Shown in pieces: positions 485-28,342 of a stretch of DNA of 51,213 nucleotides; positions within the stretch are counted from its first letter, which is position 1; every line of letters starts with the position of its first letter. Below the pieces are notes generated by a model. It did no database searches. It saw nothing but the letters and a program-made list of their open reading frames with translations, and was not told the origin of the DNA. Origin of the DNA: a virus; IMG/VR virus record IMGVR_UViG_3300048080_000104, positions 1-51,213 of that record, one strand, 5' to 3'. Made by a program: the position numbers and the translations under genes.

Positions 485-1729
485 TCAACCTCCGAACAAT
501 CGACGACGACGCTCACGCTCTGCGGCAAGAGCACCCATGATCCCGGTGTCAGCGACGAGGCTCCGTCCCAACCGACGAGGCCGTGACTGCGTCGCCGGCG
601 CCGCCATGATGCTCAGCACGCATTCTATGGCTTCGTCGATTTCATTCGCTCGGCCGACGACTAGCGGAGCCACCAGCGCAAGCGCAGAGTCTACTTCCGT
701 CGCGAGGCCGATCGCGACCCGCTTGGAGAGAGCGATCGCCAGCGCAGAATCGCTCTCTACGCTCTGCCCGGTGGTCGCGACCTTTCTCGGAACGAGGCCA
801 AGTGCCGCATCGAGCTCGTCCGACCTGCCCACCGAAAGCGGACCCGAGAGATTCAGTGCAAGAGCGGTATCCGACTCTGCGGAAACACCGACCGGTCTGA
901 GCTTCTGGAGTGAGCTGCCGAGCGCGGCATCGGTCTCTGCGCCCTGCCCGGTCGCGAAGAGCTTGGAGAGTGCCCGCGAGATCCCGGAGTCGATCTCCGC
1001 CGCGGTACCGGTAGTGGTGTACTTGACCAGAGCGGTGGCGAGCGACGCGTCCGTCTCGTTCGAGAGGCCAATCGCTGCTACTTCACGAACCGCAAGGTAA
1101 ACCGCAGCAACGTCGTCGCTGATCGCACCAGTATCCCAGCCTACCGGTCTGCTGCCCTGCCCGGGCGTCGTCTCGCGGACCGTGCTGCACGTTCGTGCGC
1201 CGATGTCGATGCTAGGGCCTTGAGTACTGTTTGCACCTACTACTGGGAGATCAGCATCTCCGAACATCACCACTGCAAGACGCAGGCTGTTCGTGCCTGG
1301 GGACCCGTCGTCTACGCTCACCTCAGTGAGCGCCTGGTTCTCCTGCTCGATCTGTACGCCTGTTGCCTGGACAGCGCCGGCGGCCGTAAGCGTGAAGCAG
1401 GCCGCGTACATCGTGTTCGCGGTGTTCGTTCGGGTCACCACGACCGTAGCCGTGTCGGCGGTTGGAACGCCGGACCCTAGAATCCACGCCTTGCAGTTCC
1501 CGATCTCAGTGACGGAATCCGCGGCGAATGCGCCTGGAACCGCGGTAAGCGCGACATCCTCGTAGGTCACCGCTGTGGCAAGATCGGTGACGGTGCTGAC
1601 CACCCACGTGAAGACGACTACACCCTGCGGCGCCGCAACCGGATCGTGCTCCCACGTGAACGATGCCTCGTTCACCGACCCCGTAGTTTCGGTGTGCGAC
1701 TCGGAGGCCGCGTCGAAGGCTACCGCCAC
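485..1729 (-). CDS. Virion-module protein of unknown function; N-terminal beta-sandwich-like domain plus 7 exact-register 20-aa tandem repeats
   Basis: 414-aa ORF with a GTG start 3 nt after the upstream stop. Residues 221-360 form 7 x 20-aa units (G-x3-E-[TISLV]-D-[SAD]-[AGS]-[LI]...), encoded at 650-1069. The N-terminus AFDAASESHTETTGS...TYEDVALTAV resembles lectin-like domains of phage minor structural proteins (from memory). Confidence 0.65.
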   Translation of the reverse strand: MAVAFDAASESHTETTGSVNEASFTWEHDPVAAPQGVVVFTWVVSTVTDLATAVTYEDVALTAVPGAFAADSVTEIGNCKAWILGSGVPTADTATVVVTRTNTANTMYAACFTLTAAGAVQATGVQIEQENQALTEVSVDDGSPGTNSLRLAVVMFGDADLPVVGANSTQGPSIDIGARTCSTVRETTPGQGSRPVGWDTGAISDDVAAVYLAVREVAAIGLSNETDASLATALVKYTTTGTAAEIDSGISRALSKLFATGQGAETDAALGSSLQKLRPVGVSAESDTALALNLSGPLSVGRSDELDAALGLVPRKVATTGQSVESDSALAIALSKRVAIGLATEVDSALALVAPLVVGRANEIDEAIECVLSIMAAPATQSRPRRLGRSLVADTGIMGALAAERERRRRLFGG

Positions 1730-1732
1730 GGC

Positions 1733-2194
1733 CTAGCTCGCCCGGAAGAAGACTCCGCCAGTCAGCTGGAGATCGTTTCCATCCGGCGTGGCCACCGCGT
1801 CGAACATGCATAGCGGGATGATATTCGCGTCCGTACCGGTGCCCGTGTCGGCGTCGTACGCCACCACGATCTTGGAGATCGCATTGCCACTCGCTGCGGT
1901 CCACGTCACGGTCGGCAGCGATACGTCGTAGCGATCATTGCCGGTGTCGGGCCCGGGAAAAGCCGCGAGCTCGGTATCCGTGAGCGTCTTCCGCCCCATC
2001 GTGGTCTGCTCGTTCGTGGCGCCGTCGAGCACCTCGGTCAGAGTCAGACTGTCGATCAGTGCAGCGTCAGTTTCGAGGCCCGTGGTCTCGATCGGAATCA
2101 GGATCAGCGCAGAGGTGGACGGGTCGTTGTTCTTGACGCGGTTGTAGTATTCGACACCACGACCCTTTGCGACGTTGAAGACGATATTCGCCAT
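1733..2194 (-). CDS. Hypothetical protein immediately downstream of portal
   Basis: 153-aa ORF. ATG at 2194 has a GAGGG RBS 8 nt upstream. It is tightly packed between the portal gene and the repeat protein. No family recognised. Confidence 0.65.
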   Translation of the reverse strand: MANIVFNVAKGRGVEYYNRVKNNDPSTSALILIPIETTGLETDAALIDSLTLTEVLDGATNEQTTMGRKTLTDTELAAFPGPDTGNDRYDVSLPTVTWTAASGNAISKIVVAYDADTGTGTDANIIPLCMFDAVATPDGNDLQLTGGVFFRAS

Positions 2195-2215: not shown

Positions 2216-3538
2216 CTATGCTGCGCGCCGCTTACCGCGAAAAGCGTTGCGCACTGCGCGGTGCAGACTCCGCTCCGCGTTCTCGTCGTCCTCATCTGGG
2301 ATCGTCTCGCCTACAATCGCAGCCGGCTCCGGTGCGTCTGGGTCGTACGTCCCCAGCGACCCGGCGATCAGCGGCTGATCGCCCCACTCGACCTCGTCGT
2401 CGTTGCGGTCTGTGAGCACCTTATTCGGGGTGCGCAGCGCATGCTCCAAGTCGTGCGCCTCGCGACGTAGCGTGAAGTCCTTGTCCTCGGAGACGAAATC
2501 CTCGAAGCATACGACCAGGGTCTCGTCGAAGTCGACCGCAAGCTGGAGCGTTAGCGTGTTGGCGATCAGGTTCGCGATCGGCTTCACCGCATAGCGGTCG
2601 AACACGTACTGATTGACATCGGCTGACGAGCGATCGCCACTCACCACCTGGCCGAGTACGCTACGCGGCGTCGCGGTCGTCATCAGAAGATCATCGCGCG
2701 CGTACTCCAGCAGGGGCGTCATCCCCTCGCGCGTATCCACAGATACGCCCTTGTACGTGTAGCCCTGCGGCAATGCCTGCGGAGCAAACCCACGACCGGC
2801 GCGAGAGTGGTTCCGATCCATCCATGCGTTATCGAAGATCTTGAGCTGATCGGGCGTGAAGTTCTGCGCGTTAGGCCCCACTTCGAGCACGCCCTTCGGT
2901 GTTGCGTCGTTCTCGTAGTGGTGCCGAAGGTGCTGCATCGCGAACTTGTGCATATCCGCGGCGATCCCGGTCGGAGAGAGATACCCCTCAGCATTCCACG
3001 GATTCTCGGGATCGGGGAAGAAGGGCCTGATCACGACGTTTGCGGGGATGCGCCCTTGGTGGCCGATTCCGTCGGTGATGGAGTAGCCGACCAGAATACC
3101 TCGGTCCACGAGCGGAGCGATTTGCCCCGGCGTCATGGGGTGCAGCTCTACGGGCATGCCGAAGCCGTTGCCGACCTTCTGCCAGTAGGTCTCGCCAGCC
3201 GAGAGAATCTGGCGCGCCGCGAGGAATAGGAGCTGCGTCAGCGTCCAGTTCGGATGCGGGTGGTCGAGCAGCTTTTTCAGCGGGTGGTCATCGAGCTCTT
3301 CGTCTTCGGTCGTGCCGGCGCGGGTACGCCGGACCACCTTGACCAGCAGCTCGAGCTCTGAGAGCCGGTTCGCGATTGCGCGGGATGCCGCGTCGAACGG
3401 CCCCAGGCTCTCACGCAGGAGTACATCGGTGGGAGGCTGGTTACCGAGACCGGGGCCGAAGTTCTCCGAGCCTGCCGGAGTCCATTGAATCGCGGGAGAT
3501 GCCGCGCGTTGTCGCGTTCCGAGAAGACTTGCAAGCAT
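2216..3538 (-). CDS. Portal protein (HK97-family type)
   Basis: 440 aa with an ATG start, positioned after terminase. The sequence pattern is typical of HK97-type portals (HPLKKLLDHPNP, ETYW, long acidic C-terminus). Confidence 0.88.
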   Translation of the reverse strand: MLASLLGTRQRAASPAIQWTPAGSENFGPGLGNQPPTDVLLRESLGPFDAASRAIANRLSELELLVKVVRRTRAGTTEDEELDDHPLKKLLDHPHPNWTLTQLLFLAARQILSAGETYWQKVGNGFGMPVELHPMTPGQIAPLVDRGILVGYSITDGIGHQGRIPANVVIRPFFPDPENPWNAEGYLSPTGIAADMHKFAMQHLRHHYENDATPKGVLEVGPNAQNFTPDQLKIFDNAWMDRNHSRAGRGFAPQALPQGYTYKGVSVDTREGMTPLLEYARDDLLMTTATPRSVLGQVVSGDRSSADVNQYVFDRYAVKPIANLIANTLTLQLAVDFDETLVVCFEDFVSEDKDFTLRREAHDLEHALRTPNKVLTDRNDDEVEWGDQPLIAGSLGTYDPDAPEPAAIVGETIPDEDDENAERSLHRAVRNAFRGKRRAA

Positions 3539-3541
3539 CGC

Positions 3542-3748
3542 CTAGCGCTCCCGGGTGAGGCTGGCGCGGTCGAGCAGGATCCCGAAAGCGAGCACGAGCA
3601 TCCCTCCGAGCATCCATGCTGCGGCGATCGAGAGTTGCGAGGTGCCGTAGACGAGAGCGGCAGCGCCGAGGAACGAGAGCGTATCTGGGACTTTGCGGGC
3701 CACCGAGGCGCGCAACTTATCGAGCGGCACTGGCGCCTCGGGAGTCAT
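3542..3748 (-). CDS. Small membrane protein (2 predicted TM segments)
   Basis: 68 aa with an ATG start. Two hydrophobic stretches: FLGAAALVYG and AAAWMLGGMLVLAFGILL. It overlaps the terL 3' end by 32 nt. Confidence 0.45.
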   Translation of the reverse strand: MTPEAPVPLDKLRASVARKVPDTLSFLGAAALVYGTSQLSIAAAWMLGGMLVLAFGILLDRASLTRER

Positions 3749-5162
3749 AGAGGCCGCCGGGTGAGTAGAGGTCTGCGGGGCTCGGGCCGATCCCTTCGCT
3801 AAGCATCAGCTCCGACAACGCCCACACCAGCGCATCCGCTCTATTGGGTGATCCCTCGGCGTCATAGCCAGTCGGCGTGAACGCCGTCACCTCGTCTTCG
3901 AGCCTCTCGAACATGCCGCAATGATGGATGCGGTGCTGCTCGTATAGGCTCCCGATCGGCTCGAACCTAACGTGCTTCCCACGGCTCGCCGTCGGAAGCT
4001 TCACGCGCGCCCGTGGATCGATGCTCCGAATCGTCGACTCCACCATGTCCCCGCCGTAGTTGCGCTCGGCCACGATCACGTCGGCCGCGAGCTCGCCGTA
4101 GAGATCGATCGTGCGTCGTGCCCAGCCCTCGGGAGAGAACACGCCCGAGCGGTCGCGCAACACGTATCCATGCCCGTCCACGCCCAATCCGCAGGCGATA
4201 ATCCCCTGTTCGTTCGTGCCGCCGGAGGGGTCGACGCCGATCGCGATCCGTTGCAGCTCCGGCACTTCGTCGAGCGTGCGCCTGTCGTTCTCGATCATGT
4301 CGATGGTGACGATTGCGCCCTCGACATCGGGCAGCAGCTCTCCCTCGATCTCCTGGCGCCCGAGGTGAGTGCCGCCGTGCTTGCCGAGGATCTCCTCGAG
4401 GTAGCTCTTTGGCAGGTTCGCGCGGTTGTCGAGTGTTGACCCGCGCGTGAGGCGAACCGGCCCGTCTTCGGTCGCACGCGCGACTAGCTCTTTTACAATC
4501 GCACTGCCGCGCCGTGGTGTAGTGCCGGCGACCATCTGCGGATGCTTGCCGCCTCGCAGGCCGAACTCGAGATTCGTCCACGTCGTATTGCCTGCAAAGT
4601 CGACGACGCGCTTCCACGTCGCCACCTCGTCGGCCAGGCCCCAGTCGTACTCAGGGCCACGCGCGCGGTCGGGCTCTTCGCTGGTGTGGATCTCGGCGCG
4701 CGATCCGTTGCGCCACTTGATGATCGTTGAGCCGCCCTGGAGTGCGACATCGCATGGATTGCCAGGCTTCGACGTGACGAGTAGACCTGAGCGCGGGTGG
4801 TGGACAACGACGCGCATCACGTCAGAGAGTGTGCGTCCGGCGAGAAAGCCTACAGAGCCTGGGAACGCTGTGGCCTTTGAGTGGACAAACTCGGCCTGTA
4901 CCCGATTCTTGCCCCAGCCGCGGCCGGTAATCAGTGCCCAGATACGCCAGTTCTCGTCGTTAGGCGGAAGCTGCCCAGGCCGTACCCAAACTTCCCAGTG
5001 ATCGAGGGCTCGACTAAGTGCCGTCCTTTCCGTTGGTGTGAGCTTCGCGACCGTCGCCGTTCGTTCTTCGGGCGACAGCGAGACGAGCCAGTCGATCCCC
5101 GATCGGGTCTTCTGCGTCAAGGTCGACACTTGCGGCGATCTCGTGGCGGGCGACAGGCTCAT
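3717..5162 (-). CDS. terL: Terminase large subunit
   Basis: 481 aa. Walker-A-like GRGWGKN follows the conserved WEVWVRPGQ motif, and a C-terminal nuclease-type region is present. The ATG at 5162 overlaps terS by 149 nt, so the exact start is uncertain. Confidence 0.9.
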   Translation of the reverse strand: MSLSPATRSPQVSTLTQKTRSGIDWLVSLSPEERTATVAKLTPTERTALSRALDHWEVWVRPGQLPPNDENWRIWALITGRGWGKNRVQAEFVHSKATAFPGSVGFLAGRTLSDVMRVVVHHPRSGLLVTSKPGNPCDVALQGGSTIIKWRNGSRAEIHTSEEPDRARGPEYDWGLADEVATWKRVVDFAGNTTWTNLEFGLRGGKHPQMVAGTTPRRGSAIVKELVARATEDGPVRLTRGSTLDNRANLPKSYLEEILGKHGGTHLGRQEIEGELLPDVEGAIVTIDMIENDRRTLDEVPELQRIAIGVDPSGGTNEQGIIACGLGVDGHGYVLRDRSGVFSPEGWARRTIDLYGELAADVIVAERNYGGDMVESTIRSIDPRARVKLPTASRGKHVRFEPIGSLYEQHRIHHCGMFERLEDEVTAFTPTGYDAEGSPNRADALVWALSELMLSEGIGPSPADLYSPGGLYDSRGASAAR

Positions 5163-5752: not shown

Positions 5753-6442
5753 CTACGTGGTGAGCCACACGTCCGGGAAGCGTTTCGCCCATGCTGCGAA
5801 CTCGCTCCGCAGATACCGGTCAAGAATCGCCTGGAGTGCTTGGCGATCTCGAATCTCCTGAAAGCCTGTCGCTTCATCGACGAGTGCGATGATTCCGACG
5901 TGTGCCAGACCGAGAACTAGGAACTCGGCCTTCTGCGCCGTACGGAGCTGGGACTTGACCAAAGCGCCGGCAGCCCTGGCCTTGAGCCAGACATCGCAGA
6001 TCTTCGGTAGAGCTTCGGCGTTAATTCCCTTCGAAACGCCGCTCCCCCCAGGGATCGTGAACGGAATCGGCTCGGACAACAGTGACATCAACTCATCGGA
6101 AATGAAAGGCTTTAGGCGTGCAGGCGACAGATATCGGGGCACAACTGCAGAGGCTGGATCTGCAGCGTTATCTCTCTTCGAATAGAACCCGCTGTATTGC
6201 AAGCCAAACGCTCTCATCATCGCGGCCTCAGAAAGCACACGTCTTCCGTCAGGAAGATTCGCGCACACAAGCTCGTTGTCCCCGATCTTGAGAACGCCAG
6301 CGTGCACTGCGATCCGACCGCGAGCCACTACCTCAAGATGCTCATGGATGCGGTTTTCGGACCAGAGCGATTTATGAACGAGATTGTTTGGCAAAGGGTG
6401 AACGCACACAATTTCAAGACGCGTTTTTGGCCGCGTCAGCAT
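5753..6442 (-). CDS. P63C-domain protein, probably a truncated remnant
   Basis: GVLKIGDNELVCANLPDGRRVLSEAAMMRAFGL and HVGIIALVDEATGFQEIRDR...WAKRFPD match the P63C domain pattern (from memory). The ORF stops right after FPD, where family members normally continue. The first 46 codons are antisense to the methyltransferase ORF. Confidence 0.5.
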   Translation of the reverse strand: MLTRPKTRLEIVCVHPLPNNLVHKSLWSENRIHEHLEVVARGRIAVHAGVLKIGDNELVCANLPDGRRVLSEAAMMRAFGLQYSGFYSKRDNAADPASAVVPRYLSPARLKPFISDELMSLLSEPIPFTIPGGSGVSKGINAEALPKICDVWLKARAAGALVKSQLRTAQKAEFLVLGLAHVGIIALVDEATGFQEIRDRQALQAILDRYLRSEFAAWAKRFPDVWLTT

Positions 6443-7606
6443 GACACGCTGTTGGTCTACGGGCGTGGTGAGGCATTCACGCTCAACCCCGTCTATCAGC
6501 CATATGGTGCGGCACAGTTGAAGCGCTACCGACCGGACTCAAAGGGCCGCCTGTACACGGGGCAAGACCTCACCGTTTCGGCCGTTCGTCGCCTGCGGCA
6601 GGATGAATGGCGAGGCGTGAAACCTCCGCCGCACCGTTCGTGGGGGGCTTCCATTGAGCAGCGCGAAGAGTGGTACGAACAGGGGCTGATCCTGCTCAAG
6701 AAGGACGGAAAGCCGCGATTCGACGGGCTCAAAGTCTATCTCGACGAGACGAAGGGAAAGCAGCTCGGAACAGTGTGGTCTGACATTCCGCGAATCAGCA
6801 ACACGGCCGCGGAGAGGCTTGGGTATCCGACCCAGAAGCCTGAGGCGCTACTCGAACGGATCATTACGGCCAGCAGTAACGAGGGAGATACGATCCTCGA
6901 CCCGTTCTGCGGATGCGGAACCACGGTAGCCGCCGCGCAGAAGCTCAACCGCCCTTGGATCGGAATCGACGTGACTCACCTCGCCATCGGACTAATCAAG
7001 CACCGGCTCCGTGATGCCTACGGCGCAGGAGTGGAGAATGAATACGAGGTGATCGGCGAACCGACCGACCTCGACGGAGCGAAGAGGCTCGCCGCAGACG
7101 AGAAGTACCAATTTCAAGCGTGGGCACTTGGCCTCGTCGGAGCTAGGCGAGCAGACATAAAGAAAGGCGCCGACAAGGGCATCGACGGCAAGCTGTTTTT
7201 TCACGACGAAGGGGCCGGAGGAAAAACGAAGCAGATCATCCTTTCGGTAAAAGGGGGGCACCTCAAGGCGACCGACGTGCGCGACCTACGCGGGGTTATC
7301 GAGCGAGAAGAGGCCGCACTGGGCGTGCTGATCTCAATAGAGGATCCGACGGGCCTCATGCGCAAAGAGGCTGCCAGCGCAGGCTTCTATACGTGGAAGC
7401 ATCCCCTCGGCGAGGAGAAGTACCCGCGGCTCCAGCTCCGAACGATTGAGGAGCTTCTTGCCGGCAAGGGCATCGAGTATCCGGACAGACAATCGAACGT
7501 GACCCACAAGAAGGCGCCGAAGGCGAAGATCAAGGCGACCGAAACTCAACTTTCACTGGTCGCGGAATCGCCCCCTGGGTACGGCGATGACGAAGATTCA
7601 AAATGA
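6197..7606 (+). CDS. N6/N4 DNA methyltransferase (beta-class, PF01555-like) fused to a C-terminal Mrr-like PD-(D/E)xK nuclease domain; 5'-truncated, no DPPY/SPPF motif
   Basis: HCDPTASHYLKMLMDAVFGPERFMNEIVWQR and motif I DPFCGCGTT are present. The C-terminus has GADKGIDG...ILSVKGG (Mrr-cat type). The motif IV region that should precede HCD is absent. The annotated start is a TTG inside the antisense P63C sequence; the first ATG is codon 48. Confidence 0.7.
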   Translation: MQAKRSHHRGLRKHTSSVRKIRAHKLVVPDLENASVHCDPTASHYLKMLMDAVFGPERFMNEIVWQRVNAHNFKTRFWPRQHDTLLVYGRGEAFTLNPVYQPYGAAQLKRYRPDSKGRLYTGQDLTVSAVRRLRQDEWRGVKPPPHRSWGASIEQREEWYEQGLILLKKDGKPRFDGLKVYLDETKGKQLGTVWSDIPRISNTAAERLGYPTQKPEALLERIITASSNEGDTILDPFCGCGTTVAAAQKLNRPWIGIDVTHLAIGLIKHRLRDAYGAGVENEYEVIGEPTDLDGAKRLAADEKYQFQAWALGLVGARRADIKKGADKGIDGKLFFHDEGAGGKTKQIILSVKGGHLKATDVRDLRGVIEREEAALGVLISIEDPTGLMRKEAASAGFYTWKHPLGEEKYPRLQLRTIEELLAGKGIEYPDRQSNVTHKKAPKAKIKATETQLSLVAESPPGYGDDEDSK

Positions 7607-12521: not shown

Positions 12522-12736
12522 GCGCCCACCCGCTCCCGTAGATGCGCGTGATATCTCCGCCAACTCGCGTGTTCCGCGATCGTCTCTTGCTCCCGCTGCC
12601 GCTGGCCACCACCCACCGGCTCCAGCTCACAGGTCGGGACGCTCCACGAGCCGAAGCACTCGGCACGGATTACGGCGCTGTCACCGTCGGTGGAGACGAC
12701 GAGAACGACTAGCGCGTGGTGGCGGGCGAGCGTCAC
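12518..12736 (-). CDS. Hypothetical small protein
   Basis: 72 aa. The GTG start overlaps the methyltransferase stop (GTGA) and its stop overlaps the next ATG. Confidence 0.4.
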   Translation of the reverse strand: MTLARHHALVVLVVSTDGDSAVIRAECFGSWSVPTCELEPVGGGQRQREQETIAEHASWRRYHAHLRERVGA

Positions 12737-13689
12737 GCGAAGATATCCCGCTGCGCTTGGATGTCTTCCTTGGCCGCAGACTCGACGTTCTTGACCGCTT
12801 GTCGGTAATAGCTGTCCTTGAGCTCGACTCCAATACCATTGCGCCCAGCTCGCACCGCCGCATAGACCTCCGAGCCGACTCCCATAAACGGAGTGAGTAC
12901 GACCTCATGCGGATTGCTCCAGAGCGCGAGGCACCGTTCGATCACGTCCAGCTGGAGCGGGTGCACGTGCTTCTCATCTTCCTCGTCGCGAGCCTTCTTG
13001 AACGGGAGCACCCGATCGATACGCACATCGTCCCAGAAGGCGCTCGCATACTGTCGCCAGATCCAATGCGAATACCGATTCTCGATCTGATTCCCATCCC
13101 AGCCGCGATAGCCCAGCAGATCGGACGGGATCGGCCTTGACCCAGCGTATTCGAGCAGGCCGATCGGGTGTGCGATTGAAACTGGATTAGTTCCCTTCCG
13201 TCGGAACATGAGCAGGTAGTCAGCAGACGCCACGGAGCACCGGCTAGAATCATCGACTACCGTCTTGTGCGCGAGGTTCTTCGCCATCGTACGGTTGCGG
13301 ACTCCTAGCGGTTCCTTCCAGACCGAGTAGCGTGCGACGTAGTGGAACCCGATCCGCTCGTGCAGTCGGATGATGTCGCCCGGGAAGTCGCGTAGAAAGT
13401 CGCAACCGCTATTGCCGCTGGGAACGTCCATGCAGTGCACACCGGTGAGTCGACCTGGCATCGTGAGTCGGAATAGCTCGCGCACCACGTACTCGTAGTG
13501 CTCGAAGAACTCTTCATAGCTCCGGCAGTTCGATAGATCGCGCTCGGAGCTGGAGTAGTTGTAGAGCCCTCCGAACGGAGGCGAGTAAACCGACAGGTGA
13601 ACGCTTCCATCTGGAAGCGTCGGCAGCACTTCGCAGCTATCTCCGTGATAGAGCGCATACCGATCGGTCAACACACTCTTCAAAGCCAT
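12733..13689 (-). CDS. DNA methyltransferase (PF01555-like), SPPF motif IV
   Basis: 318 aa with an ATG start. Motif IV is SVYSPPFGGLYNY and motif I is TPFMGVGSEVYAAVRAGRNGIGVELK. Confidence 0.85.
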   Translation of the reverse strand: MALKSVLTDRYALYHGDSCEVLPTLPDGSVHLSVYSPPFGGLYNYSSSERDLSNCRSYEEFFEHYEYVVRELFRLTMPGRLTGVHCMDVPSGNSGCDFLRDFPGDIIRLHERIGFHYVARYSVWKEPLGVRNRTMAKNLAHKTVVDDSSRCSVASADYLLMFRRKGTNPVSIAHPIGLLEYAGSRPIPSDLLGYRGWDGNQIENRYSHWIWRQYASAFWDDVRIDRVLPFKKARDEEDEKHVHPLQLDVIERCLALWSNPHEVVLTPFMGVGSEVYAAVRAGRNGIGVELKDSYYRQAVKNVESAAKEDIQAQRDIFA

Positions 13690-16877: not shown

Positions 16878-17188
16878 CCTACGCCGACGCGATTAAGCTC
16901 GTGCTCTCTCATGTGAGGGAGCACCGCGGCTCATGGTTTCTCGCCGATAATGGCGAGATCCGCCGCCACGTAGGCGAGAGCGTCGCGTGTTCGCTTAGTT
17001 CTCTGAAAAGCAAGCCGGTCAGCTCGTGTTGGTCGGTAGCGACAAGGCTCGGCATCCCGTCGAAGGCGCAGACCGACATCGCCATGGCGAACGATGGCGA
17101 AACGTACTGCAACGAATTCAAACCGCTGTCGCAAAAACTGAATGCGCTCCGGCGTCGCCTGCTACTCGCCGCGCGGCTCACGCGATGA
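16874..17188 (+). CDS. Hypothetical protein
   Basis: The ATG at 16874 overlaps the previous stop (ATGA). 104 aa. Confidence 0.5.
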   Translation: MTYADAIKLVLSHVREHRGSWFLADNGEIRRHVGESVACSLSSLKSKPVSSCWSVATRLGIPSKAQTDIAMANDGETYCNEFKPLSQKLNALRRRLLLAARLTR

Positions 17189-17868
17189 CCGCCACGACCC
17201 CGCTCGGAGTCGATCGCCTCCGCGAAATCGTCGAGCTGCACATACAGTGGCGAGCGTCGAATGGAGTCGATGGTGCGCGCGCCGACCTCACGGGCGCCGA
17301 CCTCGCGGACGCCGACCTCGCGCGCGCCGACCTCGCGGGCGCCGACCTCGCACGCGCCGACCTCACGGACGCCGACCTCACGGACGCCGACCTCACGGAC
17401 GCCGACCTCACGGGCGCCAACCTCGCACGCGCCGACCTCACGGACGCCGACCTCACGCGCGCCGACCTCACGCGCGCCGACCTCGCGGGCGCCGACCTCA
17501 CGGACGCCAACCTCACGGACGCCGACCTCGCGGGCGCCAACCTCACGGACGCCGACCTCGCGGGCGCCAACCTCGCGGGCGCCGACCTCGCACGCGCCGA
17601 CCTCACGCGCGCCGACCTCACGCGCGCCGACCTCACGCGCGCCAACGGAATTATCCGCCTCGAGCCGATCGACGGATGGATCCTGCACGCAGTGCGCTGG
17701 GCCGACGGTCCGCGCATCCACGCCGGCTGCCGCTGGTTTACCGTCTCCGAGGCCCGCGAACATTGGGGGACAGCCGCTATGCCGGATCGTCGCGAGCATT
17801 GCGATCGGATGCTCGCGGGGGTCGATGCGCTGCTGGCCGTCGCAAAGGTGCACGAGTGGCCGGTATGA
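17185..17868 (+). CDS. Pentapeptide-repeat protein (24 consecutive A[D/N]L[TA][GDR] units) with a C-terminal globular domain
   Basis: The ATG at 17185 overlaps the previous stop (ATGA). Residues 33-152 are uninterrupted pentapeptides ADLTG ADLAD ADLAR.... About 75 aa of non-repeat C-terminus follow. Confidence 0.85.
   Translation: MTATTPLGVDRLREIVELHIQWRASNGVDGARADLTGADLADADLARADLAGADLARADLTDADLTDADLTDADLTGANLARADLTDADLTRADLTRADLAGADLTDANLTDADLAGANLTDADLAGANLAGADLARADLTRADLTRADLTRANGIIRLEPIDGWILHAVRWADGPRIHAGCRWFTVSEAREHWGTAAMPDRREHCDRMLAGVDALLAVAKVHEWPV
17281..17640 (+). repeat. 24 x 15-bp tandem coding repeat (gccgacctcacggac-type)
   Basis: Read directly. The units differ at only a few positions and generate long spurious ORFs in the other five frames. 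Confidence 0.9.
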
Positions 17869-23729: not shown

Positions 23730-23932
23730 CCCCTGCTGATCTCGACGCGCTGCTGGCGGAGGCCAGCACTTACTTACACAGCGACGAGCATTCTGGCTAT
23801 GTCAGCGTGGATGGAGTTGGTTATGTCAGCGTTGAATTCGGCTTTCTCGAAAGCCTTTGCTCAGCCCTCCGCGAGCTACGGGAGGATCGGGAAGTGTTCT
23901 CGCGTCAAGCGTTTTGTACGGCTCCTGAATAG
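23726..23932 (+). CDS. Hypothetical protein
   Basis: The ATG at 23726 forms an ATGA overlap. The track start at 23714 is a TTG. Confidence 0.45.
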   Translation: MTPADLDALLAEASTYLHSDEHSGYVSVDGVGYVSVEFGFLESLCSALRELREDREVFSRQAFCTAPE

Positions 23933-24393
23933 CGCCGCCACGCCACCCAGCCCCCAACGCGCAGCCCAGCCCAGCCGAGGAACCCCTGCACCGCGTTGAC
24001 GTGTCGCTTGCCCGAGCGGGCGATGATGCGCCAGACGCGATCGGCGGCGGCACGCGGGGCGCCCCAACGGTAGAGCGCATCGTGAACGACGCCCGCGATG
24101 TCGTGCTGGTCGAATCTGCCCACGAACCACGCGGGGCCGGGTACGCTGGAGTAGTCGGTCTCGAAGCCGGCTGGGACCCGAATCTGTGTCGTGCCAGGCG
24201 CCGCAGCATGGCCCGGAGACACCCGCCAGTCCGCAGTCGTTGCGTTGTCGTGATGGCCTACGAGGTACGCCCACACGTGTAGCTCTCCGACACGCACCCC
24301 GAGATCGACCACCAGATCCGCCTGGAGCCGGCGCCGCCCATCATCGAGGCGGATGTCATCGAGAGGGCCGGAGAGCAGGTGGGCGGTTGTCAT
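23905..24393 (-). CDS. DUF1353-domain protein
   Basis: 162 aa with an ATG start. VPAGFETDYSSVP...AGVVHDALY matches the DUF1353 signature. It is the lone minus-strand gene inside the plus arm. Confidence 0.7.
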   Translation of the reverse strand: MTTAHLLSGPLDDIRLDDGRRRLQADLVVDLGVRVGELHVWAYLVGHHDNATTADWRVSPGHAAAPGTTQIRVPAGFETDYSSVPGPAWFVGRFDQHDIAGVVHDALYRWGAPRAAADRVWRIIARSGKRHVNAVQGFLGWAGLRVGGWVAWRRYSGAVQNA

Positions 24394-24425
24394 AAGTGCT
24401 CGTTATCGCTGGTGTTTTTAGACTG

Positions 24426-24453
24426 TTGACAGACACGATAGACCGTGTACACT
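24426..24453 (+). promoter_or_regulatory. Sigma70-like promoter
   Basis: TTGACA (24426-24431), a 16-nt spacer and TACACT (24448-24453), about 45 nt upstream of the ATG at 24498. Confidence 0.45.
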
Positions 24454-24497
24454 TACCCATACCGGCGCCTCGCGGATCAGAGGCAGGGAGACGAGAG

Positions 24498-24731
24498 ATG
24501 ACGATCAATCACATGGATGGCACTACGATCATCACCCGCACACTGAGCGGCGGGCAGGTGATCAGGATCACCGTCCCCGACTCAGATGCTGATCCGGTCC
24601 GGCTCTACGAGTCAGTGCGGAGCAGCGGCTGGGTCGAGCGGGCGTGCTCGGAAAAAATCGCGGCAACACACCGCCGAATCGCGGCGCGATCTCCGCGCGG
24701 AGAGTCCGATGATAGTGACTACACGACTTGA
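24498..24731 (+). CDS. Hypothetical protein
   Basis: ATG after GGGAGACGAGAG. 77 aa. The track ORF 24396..24731 is over-extended. Confidence 0.5.
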   Translation: MTINHMDGTTIITRTLSGGQVIRITVPDSDADPVRLYESVRSSGWVERACSEKIAATHRRIAARSPRGESDDSDYTT

Positions 24732-24912
24732 GCTTCGCGCTGCCACCCGCTGGCGCCGTCGCACGCTCACCGTCCACGAGGATCGCTGCGTCGTGTGCGG
24801 CGCGTGGACCGTGCGCGCGGGCTCTCGCCCGCGCGTCGTCTGCGGGCCGAGTCACCGGACGCAGCTGATGCGACTGCGCAAGCGCGGCGAGCGGCCGGAG
24901 TACGCCGGCTGA
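24709..24912 (+). CDS. Small Zn-finger-like protein
   Basis: ATG at 24709, 67 aa. CVVCGAW...VVCGPSH. It is the last gene of the plus arm. Confidence 0.4.
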   Translation: MIVTTRLELRAATRWRRRTLTVHEDRCVVCGAWTVRAGSRPRVVCGPSHRTQLMRLRKRGERPEYAG

Positions 24913-24919
24913 GCGGTGG

Positions 24920-25069
24920 TCATGCGTCCGCCAGCGATTCGTCCGGCGACGGCAGACCGTCACAGCCTGCCGGGCAGTACCACGCGTCAGGCCCTCCCCA
25001 GGGCGGCGACTCGAAGAGCATCACCGCTTCGCAGGTGGCGCAACGCGGCGGCGGGTAGGTGTACGTCAC
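24920..25069 (-). CDS. Small Zn-ribbon protein (49 aa)
   Basis: Found by hand. The GTG overlaps the nuclease stop (GTGA). VTYTYPPPRCATCEAVMLFESPPWGGPDAWYCPAGCDG.... It is the last gene of the minus arm. Confidence 0.35.
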   Translation of the reverse strand: MTYTYPPPRCATCEAVMLFESPPWGGPDAWYCPAGCDGLPSPDESLADA

Positions 25070-25527
25070 GGGCACCAACCAGCGCGTCGTCCGCCCTCGT
25101 ACCGACGCGCGAGTCCAGCCTCGACGAGCATCGCGCCAGCATCGCGCCGGTCAGCGACGACACGACAGAGAAGCCGACCGTATTTCTCCTGCGAGCATTC
25201 TTCGAGATCCACCCGCCGCGCCACCGTGAGCAGTGCCGCAAGCTGGTTACGCGCTTCGATCGCCTTCGCGCGCTCGGCGTCGCACTGGCCCTTGATCTCC
25301 GGCGTGTCGATGCCGTTGATCCGCACCGGCACGCGGTCGCCCCAGAGCGGATGAACGCCCGGGAGGCTCACGCGGATCGTGTCGCCGTCGATCACGCTCT
25401 CTACCACCACGTCGGCGAAGCGGTAGCCGTCAGCTCGGCAGATGCCGGCGAGCATCACGACCGCCATCAACACGACGAAGGCCGCGAGGGTGATCTCGTA
25501 GGCGTAGAGCCCGTCGGGCGCTCTCAC
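25066..25527 (-). CDS. Staphylococcal-nuclease (SNase/thermonuclease) homologue with an N-terminal signal-anchor
   Basis: The GTG at 25527 overlaps the lipoprotein stop (GTGA). TM segment ITLAAFVVLMAVVMLAGI, then VIDGDTIRV...VRINGIDTPE...KYGRLLCRV...EAGLA, which are the SNase catalytic and Ca-binding motifs. Confidence 0.8.
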   Translation of the reverse strand: MRAPDGLYAYEITLAAFVVLMAVVMLAGICRADGYRFADVVVESVIDGDTIRVSLPGVHPLWGDRVPVRINGIDTPEIKGQCDAERAKAIEARNQLAALLTVARRVDLEECSQEKYGRLLCRVVADRRDAGAMLVEAGLARRYEGGRRAGWCP

Positions 25528-25865
25528 TCGCAGTCCCGTGCGTCGATGTTCACCACCGGCGCCTCCGCCGGCGGCCCACTCCCCGGCAGCATCGACGCCG
25601 CGGCCGACACCAGCTTCCCGAGCCACTTGCCGAACGTGTCGGAGATAAACCCGCCCCGCACCTCGTTGACGACACCGCCGGCGCACTCATCCGTCTCCGG
25701 GTCGATCCCGTCGGCACAGCGGATGACGTAGCTGTCGCCGATGACGATGGTCAAGGAAGGCGGTGCAGTTTCTATGTGTGTTGCGCAGCCGGTGAGTAGA
25801 ATACTTGCAATAACTACAGAGCATGCGAGCCACCAAACACCGAGTACGAAAACTATTCGGTTCAC
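25524..25865 (-). CDS. Lipoprotein (lipobox LLTGC); o-spanin-like or exclusion factor
   Basis: The GTG at 25865 overlaps the holin-like stop (GTGA). VNRIVFVLGVWWLACSVVIASILLTG-C. The mature part is 87 aa with 3 further Cys and a PGSGPPAEAP stretch. Confidence 0.62.
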   Translation of the reverse strand: MNRIVFVLGVWWLACSVVIASILLTGCATHIETAPPSLTIVIGDSYVIRCADGIDPETDECAGGVVNEVRGGFISDTFGKWLGKLVSAAASMLPGSGPPAEAPVVNIDARDCE

Positions 25866-26062
25866 ACCTGCGCCCTCCGCAGCCCTAGCACAACAAGCAC
25901 GCCGCCCACCTTCTCGGCGCCGCTCTTGAGCATCGCGCACGTCTCGGGCGAGATCATCCCCGCCGCGCACACGGCATCGGCGCCGGCTGTTGCACCGACG
26001 AAGACGACGAGACCCCAGGCAGTCAGCGACTTGAACCAAGGCTTTCCGAATAGGTTAGGCAT
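25862..26062 (-). CDS. Holin-like small membrane protein (2 TM)
   Basis: ATG at 26062 with GGAGGAG 6 nt upstream. TM segments LTAWGLVVFVGATAG and VGGVLVVLGL, with a basic C-terminus. Confidence 0.5.
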   Translation of the reverse strand: MPNLFGKPWFKSLTAWGLVVFVGATAGADAVCAAGMISPETCAMLKSGAEKVGGVLVVLGLRRAQV

Positions 26063-26063
26063 C

Positions 26064-26270
26064 TCACTCTCCTCCAATCACCGACATCGTCGCCAGCCTG
26101 GCTTTCCACGGATCACAGCGACTACACCAGCACGGGCCGGGCGCGAAACAGACGTTGGCCGCGTACGACTCGCGGAGACGGCGCCAGAGCTGGACGAGCG
26201 GATCCGGCTCGTAGGACGACAGCCCCCAGTTGGGCGGCGGTGCGAGCGGTGCGGGAGCGTCGTCGGTCAT
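26064..26270 (-). CDS. Hypothetical small protein
   Basis: 68 aa with an ATGA overlap at its start. Confidence 0.45.
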   Translation of the reverse strand: MTDDAPAPLAPPPNWGLSSYEPDPLVQLWRRLRESYAANVCFAPGPCWCSRCDPWKARLATMSVIGGE

Positions 26271-26464
26271 CGCCAGAGCACTCCATCACCATGACAGGCG
26301 TTACACGGCCAAGGCCCTGCCGAATTCGAGGTGTACGTTTCCAAGTCTCCGGCAACATGCGGAGGACGCGATACAACACCAGATCCAACACAGACGGGGC
26401 ATCTATGCGGCACGAGCGATCCCCTCTCATCCCAGGCGTTGTGAATAACCACGTGCACGCTCAT
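26267..26464 (-). CDS. Small Zn-ribbon protein
   Basis: The ATG at 26464 overlaps the endolysin stop (ATGA). CPVCVGSG...CNACHGDG (DnaJ-type CxxCxGxG pairs). Confidence 0.45.
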   Translation of the reverse strand: MSVHVVIHNAWDERGSLVPHRCPVCVGSGVVSRPPHVAGDLETYTSNSAGPWPCNACHGDGVLWR

Positions 26465-26892
26465 CCCGGCCACCTCATCCCGAGCACCGCGGCCATCGGG
26501 AAGCTGCGCACGTTCACGGCGTCGTTCTGGTTGCCAGCGATCACCATCACCTCATCGCTACGGTAGCTACCGACGAGGAAACCCACATGCGCCTGTGCTG
26601 GGTTGTCGCCGCGCTTGAGCACCACGATCGCGCCGTAGGGCGCAGGCTTGATCTCGCGCCCCCAGGTAAGGTAGCTGCGCGCTGCGGCCGAGCGCGTCGA
26701 GTGGAAGTGGGCTTGCTCCAGGCACCAACAGACGAACGAGCTGCACCAGGCAATCTCATCTGTCGTCGCGTGCAGCGTCGTCGCCTCGTGGTAGGTGAGG
26801 ATCCGCTGCTCATGCGCCGGCCCCGGGATCTCCCGCACGCCGATGCGGGCCTCTTCCTTCGCGACGCGAAGCCATTCAGGCGTAAGAGACAT
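26461..26892 (-). CDS. Endolysin, TIGR02594 / NlpC-P60-CHAP-like cysteine peptidase
   Basis: ATG at 26892. SLTPEWLRVAKEEARIGVREIPG...IAWCSSFVCWCLE...HVGFLVG matches the TIGR02594 pattern (from memory). Confidence 0.72.
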   Translation of the reverse strand: MSLTPEWLRVAKEEARIGVREIPGPAHEQRILTYHEATTLHATTDEIAWCSSFVCWCLEQAHFHSTRSAAARSYLTWGREIKPAPYGAIVVLKRGDNPAQAHVGFLVGSYRSDEVMVIAGNQNDAVNVRSFPMAAVLGMRWPG

Positions 26893-26905: not shown

Positions 26906-27370
26906 CTAAAAAACGTGAGCCCATCGTTGCCGAAGAACAATCTTTGAAACGGTGGCGCTCGCGATTCCAAACTGTCTAGCAACCGAAGACCTGCTACGAC
27001 CCGTTTCACACTCTCGTCGGATGGACAACACAGCATCCTCGGTTAGCGTTGACATACCAGAGCTTTCACCGCGAGCGATGCGACCTTTTGAGCTGGCGTC
27101 CTTCATGTTGTCTTCGTTTGTGCCTAGGAAAAGATGGTCTGGCCTAACGCATCCAGGATTGTCGCATCGATGGAGAACGTGAAGGCCGCCCGCAATCGGG
27201 CCGACATGGAGCTTGTACGATGCCCGATGGGCCTTCACCCATCCCGGGTCATCTCGACCGCGGTTCATTACCCCATAGCCTTTCTTGCTCTTCGCACCAA
27301 TCCATTTCCAGCACCCGTTATCCGAAACAACCACCTTTTTCATGAAGCGGTCACGGAAATCATTCGTCAT
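26906..27370 (-). CDS. HNH homing endonuclease (HNH_3 type) with a C-terminal HTH
   Basis: CWKWIGAKSKKGYG...VLHRCDNPGCVRPDHLFLGTNEDN, then SVARQFGIASATVSKIV. GC is lower than in the flanking genes. Confidence 0.85.
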   Translation of the reverse strand: MTNDFRDRFMKKVVVSDNGCWKWIGAKSKKGYGVMNRGRDDPGWVKAHRASYKLHVGPIAGGLHVLHRCDNPGCVRPDHLFLGTNEDNMKDASSKGRIARGESSGMSTLTEDAVLSIRRECETGRSRSSVARQFGIASATVSKIVLRQRWAHVF

Positions 27371-27603
27371 CGAACACCTCGGACGAGAGACTCATCGAAG
27401 CTGGGCGGTCCGACCCACCCGACCAGCTCGACCCAGTACGCCTCAGAGCACGTATAGCAGAACAGCTCCAGCGTTCCGTTCTGCTCGTCGAGCTTGTACT
27501 GGCTGTTGTTCATCCCGCCGCACTCCGGGCAGCGCACCTCGAGCTTGCCGCCGACGCGCTTCCAGTCGTGCGGAGCGATTTGCCTCGGCTCGGTGCGACT
27601 CAT
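27367..27603 (-). CDS. Zn-ribbon protein
   Basis: ATGA overlaps at both ends. CPECGG...CYTC. Confidence 0.5.
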   Translation of the reverse strand: MSRTEPRQIAPHDWKRVGGKLEVRCPECGGMNNSQYKLDEQNGTLELFCYTCSEAYWVELVGWVGPPSFDESLVRGVR

Positions 27604-27839
27604 TTCTCGACCTTCCCGATGATGTCGTTAGGCACTCGCGGGATGATCCGCTCCTTGCCCGCGTCTCGCCTCTCGATCGCCATCTCTCGACACAGCTCGA
27701 ACCCAGCGCGGTAGCTGTCGCCGCGCTCCTGATCGGGAGTGCGCGACGCGGCGAACTGGAGGCCGTTTGCGGCACCCAGAGCAGCGATCAGCGCAGCGAG
27801 TAGACGCGGATCTTTGAGCAGCGCTGCGAATCCGTTCAC
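27600..27839 (-). CDS. Hypothetical protein with a hydrophobic N-terminus
   Basis: GTGA overlap at the start. FAALLKDPRLLAALIAALGAANG. Confidence 0.45.
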   Translation of the reverse strand: MNGFAALLKDPRLLAALIAALGAANGLQFAASRTPDQERGDSYRAGFELCREMAIERRDAGKERIIPRVPNDIIGKVEK

Positions 27840-28342
27840 GGTTTCTTCTCCAGCTCGTCGATCTTCTCTTGGAACCGCTCTGACCTGGCCTTCCAGTAAC
27901 GGCCGTCCGATTCCGACTTCAACGTGGTATCGAGGTCGCGCATCTCTCGCTGTAGGCGGTCGTCGAGCTCGCCGATGTTCTCGTGGTTCCGATCTGCGTC
28001 TGCCTGCTGGATTAGCTTCGCCTCTTCGAGCCTCGATAGCACGACCGGATGACCGTCGAGTCGATCGTGGTGGACGAAATCAGCCTCGACTCGCTCCAGT
28101 CGTTGCACGTACGGGAGCGAGAACCCGCCGACGATCAGCGCTAGCGCACCGATGCACGCGACGATCACCGTCAGCGGTGTTCGCGCCGCGGTGCGCGAGT
28201 CGGCCATGAACGACTTGACGTCGGACGTGAACGATTTTAAGTCATCGTGCAGCCCTGTAAGATCGCTCTCCAGCCTGATCTGTCCCTGCTCCAGCGTACG
28301 CAGGCGTTTGTCGATCGTGACCCGACCGTTCGGCTCAGCCAC
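27836..28342 (-). CDS. Coiled-coil membrane protein (central TM)
   Basis: GTG with GAGGTG 5 nt upstream. TM segment LTVIVACIGALALIVGGFSL is flanked by heptad-like charged regions. Possibly i-spanin-like. Confidence 0.55.
   Translation of the reverse strand: MAEPNGRVTIDKRLRTLEQGQIRLESDLTGLHDDLKSFTSDVKSFMADSRTAARTPLTVIVACIGALALIVGGFSLPYVQRLERVEADFVHHDRLDGHPVVLSRLEEAKLIQQADADRNHENIGELDDRLQREMRDLDTTLKSESDGRYWKARSERFQEKIDELEKKP

Follow-up and report, generated by a model that had tools for sequence, protein, structure and literature searches.

The window analyzed here (the whole 51,213-nt stretch of DNA from IMG/VR virus record IMGVR_UViG_3300048080_000104, positions 1 to 51,213) contains four consecutive genes between positions 24,920 and 26,062, designated A to D, in the distal part of a siphophage lysis cassette. 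A lysis-cassette setting had already been proposed in an initial annotation of this DNA, and it holds. The four genes, with lengths in amino acids (aa), are as follows.

26062..25862, minus strand: gene A, 66 aa, ATG start
25865..25524, minus strand: gene B, 113 aa, GTG start, lipoprotein precursor
25527..25066, minus strand: gene C, 153 aa, GTG start, member of the staphylococcal nuclease (SNase) family
25069..24920, minus strand: gene D, 49 aa, GTG start, mini open reading frame (ORF) with four Cys residues

In sequence comparisons, A and B are undescribed families, which together form a variant lysis cassette with a new type of lipoprotein in the position of spanins; C adds a new member to a known family, and its genomic position is unusual. 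The nuclease-bearing lineage is rare (three contigs), and all functions discussed below are putative. The initial annotation knew of no phage module of this composition, and in agreement with this, the literature that we searched yielded nothing relevant on an SNase or thermonuclease gene located in a lysis cassette or accompanied by spanins; A and B were also absent from 50,697 phage records.

The minus-strand arrangement could be read directly from the sequence and its translations, as could the GTGA stop/start overlaps described previously, at 25865-25862 (A-B), 25527-25524 (B-C) and 25069-25066 (C-D). NTGA overlaps are common throughout this genome, with at least 10 other real junctions (e.g., at 50904, 48494, 31922, 31485, 28978, 27839, 27603, 12736, 11212 and 8014), and the GTGA chain is the default junction of this genome, not above background. 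The GC content at third codon positions (GC3) was 0.75-0.81 across the frames of all four genes. By codon log-odds, with 16 long genes from the same genome as the training set, A, B and C scored 0.23, 0.17 and 0.22, respectively, and D was the weakest (0.09). The longest-ORF versions of B (171 aa) and C (206 aa) were rejected: their N-terminal extensions overlap the upstream gene and scored negative (-0.36 for B and -0.19 for C), which supports the overlap starts of both genes. A strong Shine-Dalgarno sequence (GGAGGAG) precedes A, GGAGGG precedes B and a weak GGGA precedes C; none was found for D. The non-ATG starts are hidden in a longest-ORF listing, as had been pointed out, and a public gene caller also placed two starts incorrectly: that of B at an internal TTG (a 76-aa product, P0121, without its lipobox) and that of A at a TTG further upstream (71 aa). 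These two cases illustrate how automatic start-codon calls may hide signal sequences.

The product of gene B has the basic n-region, hydrophobic h-region and lipobox of a bacterial lipoprotein, with a signal peptide that ends in LLTG|C (MNRIVFVLGVWWLACSVVIASILLTG|C) and is followed by Ala at position +2. The presence of Ala, not Asp, at this position implies sorting to the outer membrane according to the E. coli paradigm. For the mature protein (~87 aa), a beta-hairpin containing a disulfide is predicted, along with an amphipathic helix (FGKWLGKLVSAAASML) and a Pro/Gly tail. Gene B codes for the sole credible lipoprotein in the 51-kb genome. An exhaustive hidden Markov model search of 1.84 billion representatives identified only ~11 clusters of relatives, and a word-based search found one homolog (P0122, on contig L002). 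All of these relatives are lipoproteins of 90-105 aa. The motif LLxGC|AT was conserved in 12/12 members, in agreement with the lipobox claimed in the initial annotation, and the next residue was R or H. Additional common features are a VVVWGDxY...C...C...EVRGG core, a moderately hydrophobic amphipathic helix and a PG..PP tail, and most members have 2-4 periplasmic Cys residues. In the mature proteins, the best 18-residue window had a Kyte-Doolittle value of 0.8-1.3 in most members (two reached 1.7-1.9); this amphipathic window includes Lys and is followed by the Pro/Gly tail. The combination of a lipobox and a C-terminal transmembrane domain (TMD), which defines unimolecular spanins, was not found in B.

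No significant family for A or B was detected in Pfam, PHROG, NCBIfam or PADLOC, and neither A nor B had a homolog in the 50,697 phage records searched with tblastn. A scan of IMG/VR with the B alignment detected no relatives; a metagenome scan with B patterns also returned none, its result being swamped by generic lipobox matches. Weak matches of A, B and D to LysC, entericidin, DoxX and methyltransferase families were rejected, being below threshold and covering signal or hydrophobic segments only.

Gene A codes for a protein with one clear Gly/Ala-rich transmembrane (TM) segment (approximately residues 13-35), a loop with two conserved Cys residues, a short second hydrophobic segment and an RRAQV tail. 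It had been described as a 2-TM holin-like protein; the holin-like character stands, given one clear TM segment and the position in the cassette, and the second TM segment is doubtful, its hydrophobic stretch being only 10-12 aa long. Gene A has the layout expected of a holin gene, that is, a small membrane protein with at least one TMD and a charged C-terminus encoded beside endolysin or spanin genes. Its homologs P0135, P0136 and a 66-aa protein of locus L120 have GKPWFKSLTAWGLVV in common; the latter is 41% identical to A, with KSLTAWGL, both Cys residues and a GxRRA tail conserved. Homologs of A always occurred in lysis cassettes, followed by a B-type lipoprotein gene, a spanin pair or another lipoprotein gene. 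Hence the A family behaves as a cassette holin, and gene A probably codes for a small inner-membrane protein of holin type.

Members of the A family were located directly after a GH108 endolysin (L120) or directly before a pair of inner-membrane (i-) and outer-membrane (o-) spanin genes (L126). In L126 and L127, the A-family gene is followed by an overlapped i-/o-spanin pair in the textbook layout. The i-spanin candidate of L126 (526..792, plus strand, 88 aa) combines a TMD at its N-terminus with a charged coiled coil. The o-spanin candidate (668..907, plus strand, 79 aa) starts inside the i-spanin gene in another frame, is preceded by the Shine-Dalgarno sequence AAGGAGG and has a signal (MRWRRAAWLASWLAC) with an unusual lipobox (WLAC) and a PKIPRPP stretch. 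The public gene call for this o-spanin (734-907) lacks the signal peptide. In L128, an A-like gene is followed by another lipoprotein-like gene. The spanin pair after the same A-type gene in L126 indicates that B, and not the nuclease as previously suggested, occupies the spanin slot of the window.

We further compared the gene order of the loci that contain B homologs.

L001: GH108 endolysin, 91-aa TM protein, GTGA overlap, B-like gene, SNase gene
L002: Cys-rich ORF, 87-aa TM protein, B-like gene, 4-Cys ORF, SNase gene
L119: tm79-like gene (tm79 is described below), Amidase_2 endolysin, Cys-rich ORF, 75-aa TM protein, GTGA overlap, B-like gene, 38-aa ORF, DUF1353 gene
L120: GH108 endolysin, 66-aa A homolog, ATGA overlap, B-like gene
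L121: TM/coiled-coil protein, DUF5675, 56-aa TM protein, B-like gene
L122: in-frame fusion of a 2-TM segment and a B-like domain

B homologs always followed a small TM protein, which was fused to the B-like domain in L122, and they were found beside an endolysin gene in L001, L119, L120 and L121. In the loci that retain an endolysin, at least four endolysin types accompany B-family genes. The 4-nt overlap between A and B is conserved in the window, L001, L119 and L120. Two in-frame fusions of a holin-position membrane segment with a B-type domain were observed, P0130 (L122, 159-710, plus strand, 183 aa) and P0132 (145 aa); these are either true fusion proteins or include a lipoprotein made from an internal start, and both possibilities mean tight A-B linkage. 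A and B therefore appear to be a conserved pair that forms the core of the cassette in rare metagenomic relatives.

The distribution of C and D was different. L119, L121 and L122 contain the A-B pair without C or D (L120 ends 62 nt past B and is uninformative in this respect), and among the loci examined C was confined to the window, L001 and L002. Common to L119 and the window are p139, tm79, B (54% identity) and the DUF1353 protein (57% identity), but not C and D, which L119 lacks. The recurrence of A and B without C and D shows that the four genes are not one functional module, as they had been taken to be. B was upstream of C in 3/3 C-bearing loci. The GTGA junction between B and C, which had been described as a translational coupling, is not conserved: it occurs in the window only, and is replaced by a 78-nt gap in L001 and an intervening ORF in L002. 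C and D are thus best described as a probable add-on inserted between B and a terminal DUF1353 gene.

The slot between B and the DUF1353 gene contains the 38-aa ORF in L119, C and a lipoprotein-like gene in L001, and C, D and a low-coding stretch in the window. The L001 gene after the nuclease (3879-4124, plus strand) is a Cys-rich secreted or lipoprotein-like ORF (VRGLVAIVALALLGASC...) that overlaps the nuclease gene by GTGA, is not D and is cut by the contig end. Since this gene differs from that in the window, the slot after the nuclease is variable. On the far side of the slot lies the following gene.

23905..24393, minus strand: DUF1353 gene (Pfam DUF1353, 2e-12)

Its product is the 57% identical counterpart of the L119 protein, encoded there after B and the 38-aa ORF; no match to it was found in the 50,697 phage records (tblastn). 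Judging by synteny with L119, the late unit probably ends with this gene. The earlier placement of genes A to D at the end of the late operon is therefore correct as to the distal lysis cassette, and the end itself is probably shifted to the DUF1353 gene. The 526 nt between D and this gene (24394-24919) have no convincingly coding frame on either strand. This stretch contains a good sigma-70-like promoter (24426-24453, plus strand, 10/12 match) and a terminator-like hairpin with a T-run (24676-24660, minus strand). Two plus-strand ORFs here are questionable, 24396-24731 and 24586-24912; the latter contains a CxxC...C..H motif.

The nuclease assignment of C in the initial annotation was confirmed by a match to Pfam SNase (PF00565, 34.5 bits against a gathering cutoff of 21, E 3e-8), together with a match to phrog_452 "endonuclease" (2.4e-18). 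The protein contains the motifs IDGDT, RINGIDTPE and KYGR and a hydrophobic stretch (ITLAAFVVLMAVVMLAGI). In the alignment with S. aureus nuclease, IDGDT, R-x4-DTPE and KYGR fall on the Ca-binding and catalytic residues (D21, D40, T41, R35, E43, Y85 and R87), and the catalytic columns were conserved in 108-120 of 120 homologs. A structure model, proposed earlier as a check, gave the oligonucleotide/oligosaccharide-binding fold (OB-fold) of SNases: the AlphaFold2 (AF2) model, built on 43 homologs, had a mean predicted local distance difference test score (pLDDT) of 91.4, and in a Foldseek search of PDB all of the 50 best matches (50/50) were staphylococcal nuclease (E down to 1.7e-9; root-mean-square deviation 1.8-3.0 A over 111-118 columns; TM-score 0.6-0.7). 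C is thus predicted to be an SNase-family enzyme with all catalytic and Ca-binding residues and a putative Ca2+-dependent activity. Two Cys residues, Cys82 (after DTPEIKGQ) and Cys152 (in the C-terminal GWCP), covary among 120 homologs (45 with both, 74 with neither and 1 discordant). This covariation is a disulfide signature and points to an extracytoplasmic protein.

C has a hydrophobic N-terminal export signal (residues 12-30) followed by CRA|DG (...VVMLAGICRA|DGYRF). Among the sequences found, only two were close to C: P0002 of L001 (61% identity overall and 71% over the mature domain) and a gene cut short on L002 (71-76% identity). Both orthologs have classic cleavable signals (MRRDGSIRRSATLGQGALALLSAWLAIPAAA|HEPGYRF and MFGRTAARTCGVAILCAFIASTTYA|DGYRF) that end where the window protein reads CRA|DGYRF, with n-regions RRDGSIRR and FGRTAAR and cleavage sites AAA|HE and TYA|DG. 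The mature N-terminus, (D/E)(G/P)GYRFADVVVESV, is common to all three proteins. The GTG start of C is supported by an N-terminal MR..DG that the L001 protein has as well. Cleavage of C at CRA|DG is therefore probable, and the description of the nuclease as membrane-anchored is doubtful; the window protein could be retained as a signal anchor, which is not the family norm, and the catalytic domain would be periplasmic either way. An alternative lipobox in C (AGIC) was rejected because Ile at position -1 is unfit.

A genome scan with a 5-sequence alignment revealed a classic signal peptide at the start of nearly all of 80 genomic SNase homologs, and a lipobox in a few. The nearest homologs were almost all in diderm genomes (Electrothrix, gamma- and alphaproteobacteria, Bdellovibrionota and Elusimicrobia). 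C-type SNases were also detected on 721 plasmids, 505/721 of which were conjugative. The C family thus appears to comprise small secreted nucleases that are common on conjugative plasmids and Gram-negative chromosomes. IMG/VR scans with C and with the C/P0002 alignment gave no relatives, and a metagenome scan with C patterns gave homologs at <=46% identity only, as short segments in unrelated contexts. A PADLOC match of C (SNc+LTD, 1.6e-4) reflects only the shared SNase domain. A general association of SNase and lysis genes in phages was examined and rejected, the contexts in Sulfurimonas, Dinoroseobacter, Microcystis and cyanomyophage sequences being replication, integration or metabolic regions; an SNase gene beside a "chitinase" was found in one uncultured phage only. 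A low-GC phage contig (L005, region 1244-2053, plus strand) contains an SNase gene with a signal peptide (43% identical) ~1.3 kb upstream of terminase genes, flanked by genes for a 57-aa 2-TM protein (overlapping) and an 89-aa protein with an N-terminal TM segment. This may be a second, independent link of a secreted SNase with small membrane proteins.

Gene D corresponds to the 49-aa CxxC...CxxxC protein noted previously, which is present with a Zn-ribbon-like Cys spacing (C10xxC13-x18-C32xxxC36). D had no family match in Pfam, PHROG, NCBIfam or PADLOC and no tblastn match in the fetched loci; L002 has a 4-Cys ORF between B and C whose homology to D is not demonstrable. Because it lacks a Shine-Dalgarno sequence and a homolog and has the lowest coding signal, D is a weakly supported orphan.

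The lysis region upstream of gene A contains the following features.

27836..28342, minus strand: 168-aa coiled-coil/TM/coiled-coil protein, the first gene of the lysis region, with TM residues 57-71
27600..27839, minus strand: tm79, 79 aa, with an N-terminal TM segment, a charged helical domain of ~48 aa and a conserved Cys (CREMA)
26906-27603, minus strand: HNH homing endonuclease gene plus a Zn-ribbon ORF (78 aa), an insertion that separates tm79 from the endolysin gene
26461..26892, minus strand: endolysin, 143 aa from ATG 26892, TIGR02594/CHAP-like, without a signal sequence
26267-26473, minus strand: up68b, 68 aa, Cys-rich, between the endolysin gene and up68a
26064-26270, minus strand: up68a, 68 aa, Cys-rich, adjoining gene A

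The gene order is therefore the 168-aa protein, tm79, the Zn-ribbon ORF, HNH, the endolysin, two 68-aa ORFs, A, B, C and D. The 168-aa protein has a weak similarity to XhlA (Pfam 1.8e-4, below cutoff). A homolog of tm79 occurs upstream of the endolysin gene in L119 (42% identity, E 7e-14). In L001 and L121, a protein built like tm79 is likewise encoded upstream of the endolysin; in L128, for which we could identify no endolysin, such a protein is encoded upstream of the A-like gene. An N-in/C-out topology is indicated by the basic N-terminus of the L119 homolog. We consider tm79 a candidate holin or a candidate short i-spanin partner of B. The endolysin, whose start was set after the end of the HNH gene, matched TIGR02594 (8.5e-33), CHAP (2e-5) and PHROG endolysin/tail lysozyme families. 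The HNH gene (HNH_3, 2.6e-12, with a C-terminal helix-turn-helix) has atypical composition (GC3 0.55, codon log-odds ~0) and is the only part of the region similar at the DNA level to a known phage (the endonuclease of Xanthomonas citri phage CP2, 72% over 150 nt). The up68b protein shows a DnaJ-like CxxCxGxG...CxxCxGxG zinc-finger pattern, is atypical as well (GC3 0.57, codon log-odds -0.17) and has no counterpart in L119 or L002. A relative of up68a was present upstream of the A-position gene in L002, through which alone a 55-aa ORF of L119 is tied to up68a.

An exact 127-bp direct repeat is present at both contig ends (window 1-127 and 51087-51213) and therefore the genome is complete; one ORF runs uninterrupted across the joined ends. 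The contig is thus a complete circular or terminally redundant phage genome of ~51.1 kb. The terminase and portal genes are on the minus strand (5162..2216), the same strand as the lysis genes; therefore, the late operon wraps the contig ends, passes the tail genes and ends in the lysis region. No integrase was detected among the larger ORFs scanned and no tRNA genes were found in the window. INPHARED contained no phage close to the window at the DNA level, and the sole match in the DNA search of the region was the HNH gene of Xanthomonas phage CP2. The phage is a siphophage of an uncultured type with a Gram-negative (diderm) host. Matches of the tail-tube protein were restricted to siphophages of Gram-negative hosts (e.g., Dinoroseobacter, Xanthomonas, Stenotrophomonas and Pseudomonas), and the endolysins beside A/B-type genes are small, globular and interchangeable (TIGR02594, GH108+PG_binding_3, Amidase_2 and DUF5675); together with the spanin pair in L126 and the diderm SNase homologs, these observations suggest the diderm host. 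Elsewhere in the window, the early region contains a gene for a 280-aa pentapeptide-repeat protein (17026-17868, plus strand; Pfam Pentapeptide, 3.6e-41), which could be a DNA mimic or an anti-defense factor. Two DNA methyltransferases (N6_N4_Mtase) are encoded at 6197-7606 (plus strand) and 12733-13689 (minus strand). The former carries a fused restriction-endonuclease-like domain (NA-iREase1/Mrr_cat), and its gene is on the strand opposite to that of its neighbors.

The explanation that we favor, to which we give roughly an even chance, is a two-layer lysis cassette in which A and B form the core and the accessory nuclease C (with D) is exported late and released at lysis to digest DNA. In such a cassette, A would be translationally coupled to B and reside in the inner membrane. 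B would be processed by Sec, Lgt and LspA to an outer-membrane lipoprotein, and may perform or join the last step of lysis, in which the outer membrane is disrupted, either as a stand-alone protein or as the outer subunit of a split spanin with tm79 as the inner subunit. On the evidence of its lipobox, lysis-cassette location and periplasmic Cys residues, the latter two also being features of o-spanins, B is proposed to be an outer-membrane lysis component equivalent to a spanin. C, as a Ca2+-dependent SNase-type nuclease, would be synthesized late alongside the lysis proteins, exported by its N-terminal signal and oxidized to the disulfide form in the periplasm, out of reach of replicating and packaging phage DNA. 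When the holin, the endolysin and B destroy the envelope, C would meet the cytoplasm and the medium and digest unencapsidated host or extracellular DNA and RNA. This may lower viscosity and free the virions, and nucleotide recycling for neighboring hosts may follow. Degradation of extracellular DNA at lysis was among the roles offered in the initial annotation. The biological role of the nuclease, its signal cleavage and its enzymatic activity are predictions from sequence features. A role at lysis is in line with two known cases. E. coli engineered to contain a periplasmic staphylococcal nuclease grows, and its DNA is degraded and viscosity lowered only after breakage (PMC5674116). Streptococcal prophage DNases have been proposed to degrade bacterial DNA after lytic induction, with less viscosity and better virion transmission (PMC3629212).

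Several observations weigh against this explanation. The best spanin match of B was to Pfam LysC with E=0.15 (12 bits against a cutoff of 27), B is not a sequence member of any known o-spanin family, it is not Pro-rich (7%) and its AF2 model was of low confidence (pLDDT 52). An adjacent or overlapping i-spanin gene, by which two-component spanins are defined (PMC6139136), is also missing: the upstream gene, A, has no periplasmic domain and the downstream gene is the nuclease, and the sole i-spanin-like candidates (tm79 and the 168-aa protein) are located 1.7-2.5 kb upstream of B, beyond the endolysin. Gene A matched no holin family in Pfam, PHROG or NCBIfam, its second hydrophobic segment is short, and a second holin candidate (tm79) and an XhlA-like gene are present upstream, so the assignment of roles within the cassette is uncertain. 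The h-region of the window nuclease is 18-19 aa long, with a 15-mer Kyte-Doolittle value of 2.9 against 1.7-1.9 in the orthologs, and its n-region is uncharged; this protein may remain anchored in the membrane. In other phages, SNase homologs are encoded in replication or integration regions and not in lysis cassettes, and the link to lysis rests on three related contigs. Finally, many phages lyse efficiently without such a nuclease, and the benefit may be small or niche-specific.

A different role for C, also listed among those of the initial annotation, would be superinfection exclusion, in which the periplasmic nuclease, possibly with B at the outer membrane, destroys the DNA of competitor phages or DNA that is taken up or transferred. 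The enzyme is probably exported and periplasmic, its family is abundant on conjugative plasmids, where a role as an entry barrier is conceivable, and phage lipoproteins at similar positions are exclusion factors (T5 Llp and Cor). We nevertheless regard this possibility as unlikely. C is chained to lysis genes at the operon end with no room for a promoter of its own, and therefore the protein would be made only shortly before lysis; no integrase was seen in the scan of the larger ORFs, and so there is no evident lysogen to profit from exclusion; and B is found without C in L119, L121 and L122. Moreover, injected phage DNA normally crosses the periplasm in a protein conduit.

It is similarly improbable that C and D are neutral or selfish cargo, acquired from a plasmid or chromosomal pool by a permissive site where the operon ends, with little or no benefit. 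Such a site would fit the variable content between B and the DUF1353 gene among relatives, the uptake of an HNH homing endonuclease with atypical codon usage by the same region, and the high mobility of the SNase family. However, three diverged phages with different endolysins have retained C (61-76% identity) together with every catalytic residue and both export features, and the codon usage of C is fully adapted to the phage (log-odds 0.22).

We find it very hard to accept a nuclease-bearing spanin, as contemplated previously, in which B as the o-spanin and a membrane-anchored C in the i-spanin position span the periplasm with the SNase domain in place of a coiled coil. The long, very hydrophobic N-terminal segment of the window C could be a type II anchor, and B and C are adjacent and overlap by GTGA; yet the orthologs in L001 and L002 have classic cleavable signals and hence would be soluble, B and its A partner occur without any nuclease in three loci (L119, L121 and L122), and SNase is a compact globular OB-fold and not an extended fusogenic domain. 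The lipoprotein-first order and the non-conserved B-C junction are also unlike all spanin architectures (PMC6139136). A dedicated role of B in inhibiting or chaperoning the nuclease, or in tethering it to the outer membrane, as for an immunity protein, seems highly improbable in spite of the position of B before C in 3/3 C-bearing loci, since B is older and more widespread than this pairing (at least three loci have B and no C, and in one version B is fused to a holin-like gene), a detectable B relative was present in 0/80 genomic loci with an SNase homolog, and a periplasmic nuclease needs no immunity protein, as in the engineered E. coli (PMC5674116).

With regard to known systems, B resembles the outer-membrane subunits of two-component spanins (lambda Rz/Rz1 and P2 LysB/LysC) as a small outer-membrane lipoprotein with periplasmic Cys residues encoded after a holin-type gene. 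It differs from them in lacking a neighboring or overlapping i-spanin, in not being rich in proline, in its predicted beta-hairpin and amphipathic helix, and in showing no sequence similarity to any spanin family. It also differs from the unimolecular spanin T1 gp11, as it lacks a C-terminal TMD. Another comparison is offered by the phiKT gp28 "disruptin," a spanin-independent outer-membrane disruptor that is a cationic amphipathic peptide with no sequence similarity to B. Unlike B, gp28 is not known to be a lipoprotein or to carry a signal sequence. With its conserved amphipathic, Lys-containing helix, B could likewise act on the outer membrane without an inner-membrane partner (bioRxiv 10.1101/515445). 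In a published survey of spanins, two-component o-spanins resembled B in +2 Ala and periplasmic Cys, and 0/58 unimolecular spanins had such a Cys; many o-spanin starts were mis-called by automatic annotation, as was that of B, and ~13% of phages of Gram-negative hosts had no recognizable spanin (PMC6139136). As a conserved lipoprotein family that fills the spanin slot behind a common holin family, the B family offers a concrete candidate for one more way of disrupting the outer membrane. We tentatively raise the possibility, which is doubtful at present, that it is a new class of outer-membrane-disrupting lysis lipoproteins that has taken over from the classical i-/o-spanin pair behind the same holin family and works with no inner-membrane subunit encoded next to it, and that a sub-lineage gained a periplasm-loaded SNase, by which lysis-coupled DNA clearance was built into release. 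Such a lipoprotein may act via its conserved amphipathic helix or via the non-adjacent short partner tm79.

C resembles other members of the SNase family (PF00565; S. aureus Nuc, B. subtilis YncB and the plasmid "thermonuclease family protein") in its fold, Ca-binding and catalytic residues and N-terminal signal. However, it is only ~24% identical to S. aureus nuclease and shorter (mature protein ~120 aa), and it is distinguished within the family by a C-terminal GG(K/R)RxGWC, predicted to be disulfide-bonded to the Cys after DTPEIKGxC, and by being encoded in a phage lysis cassette. Our analysis thus adds small SNase variants that are predicted to be disulfide-stabilized. The DNases of Streptococcus pyogenes prophages (Spd-1, Spd-3 and Sda1) are His-Me/beta-beta-alpha-metal nucleases with a fold unrelated to that of C. 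They belong to temperate phages of a Gram-positive host and have their own promoters and host regulation, whereas C is chained to lysis genes in a phage of a diderm host. Like C, they are phage-borne, secreted and encoded at the lysis end of the genome, and the same role has been proposed for them (PMC3629212). An exported SNase would extend the idea of phage nucleases released by lysis from streptococcal prophages to phages of diderm hosts. The "autonucleolytic" E. coli strains, in which staphylococcal nuclease is directed to the periplasm by OmpA or DsbA signals, follow the same logic as proposed for C, the enzyme being parked until breakage (PMC5674116). These strains are man-made and the enzyme is released by homogenization, whereas release of C by the phage holin and endolysin is proposed here; the nuclease would stay in the periplasm until the capsids are filled, which illustrates a principle of self-protection.

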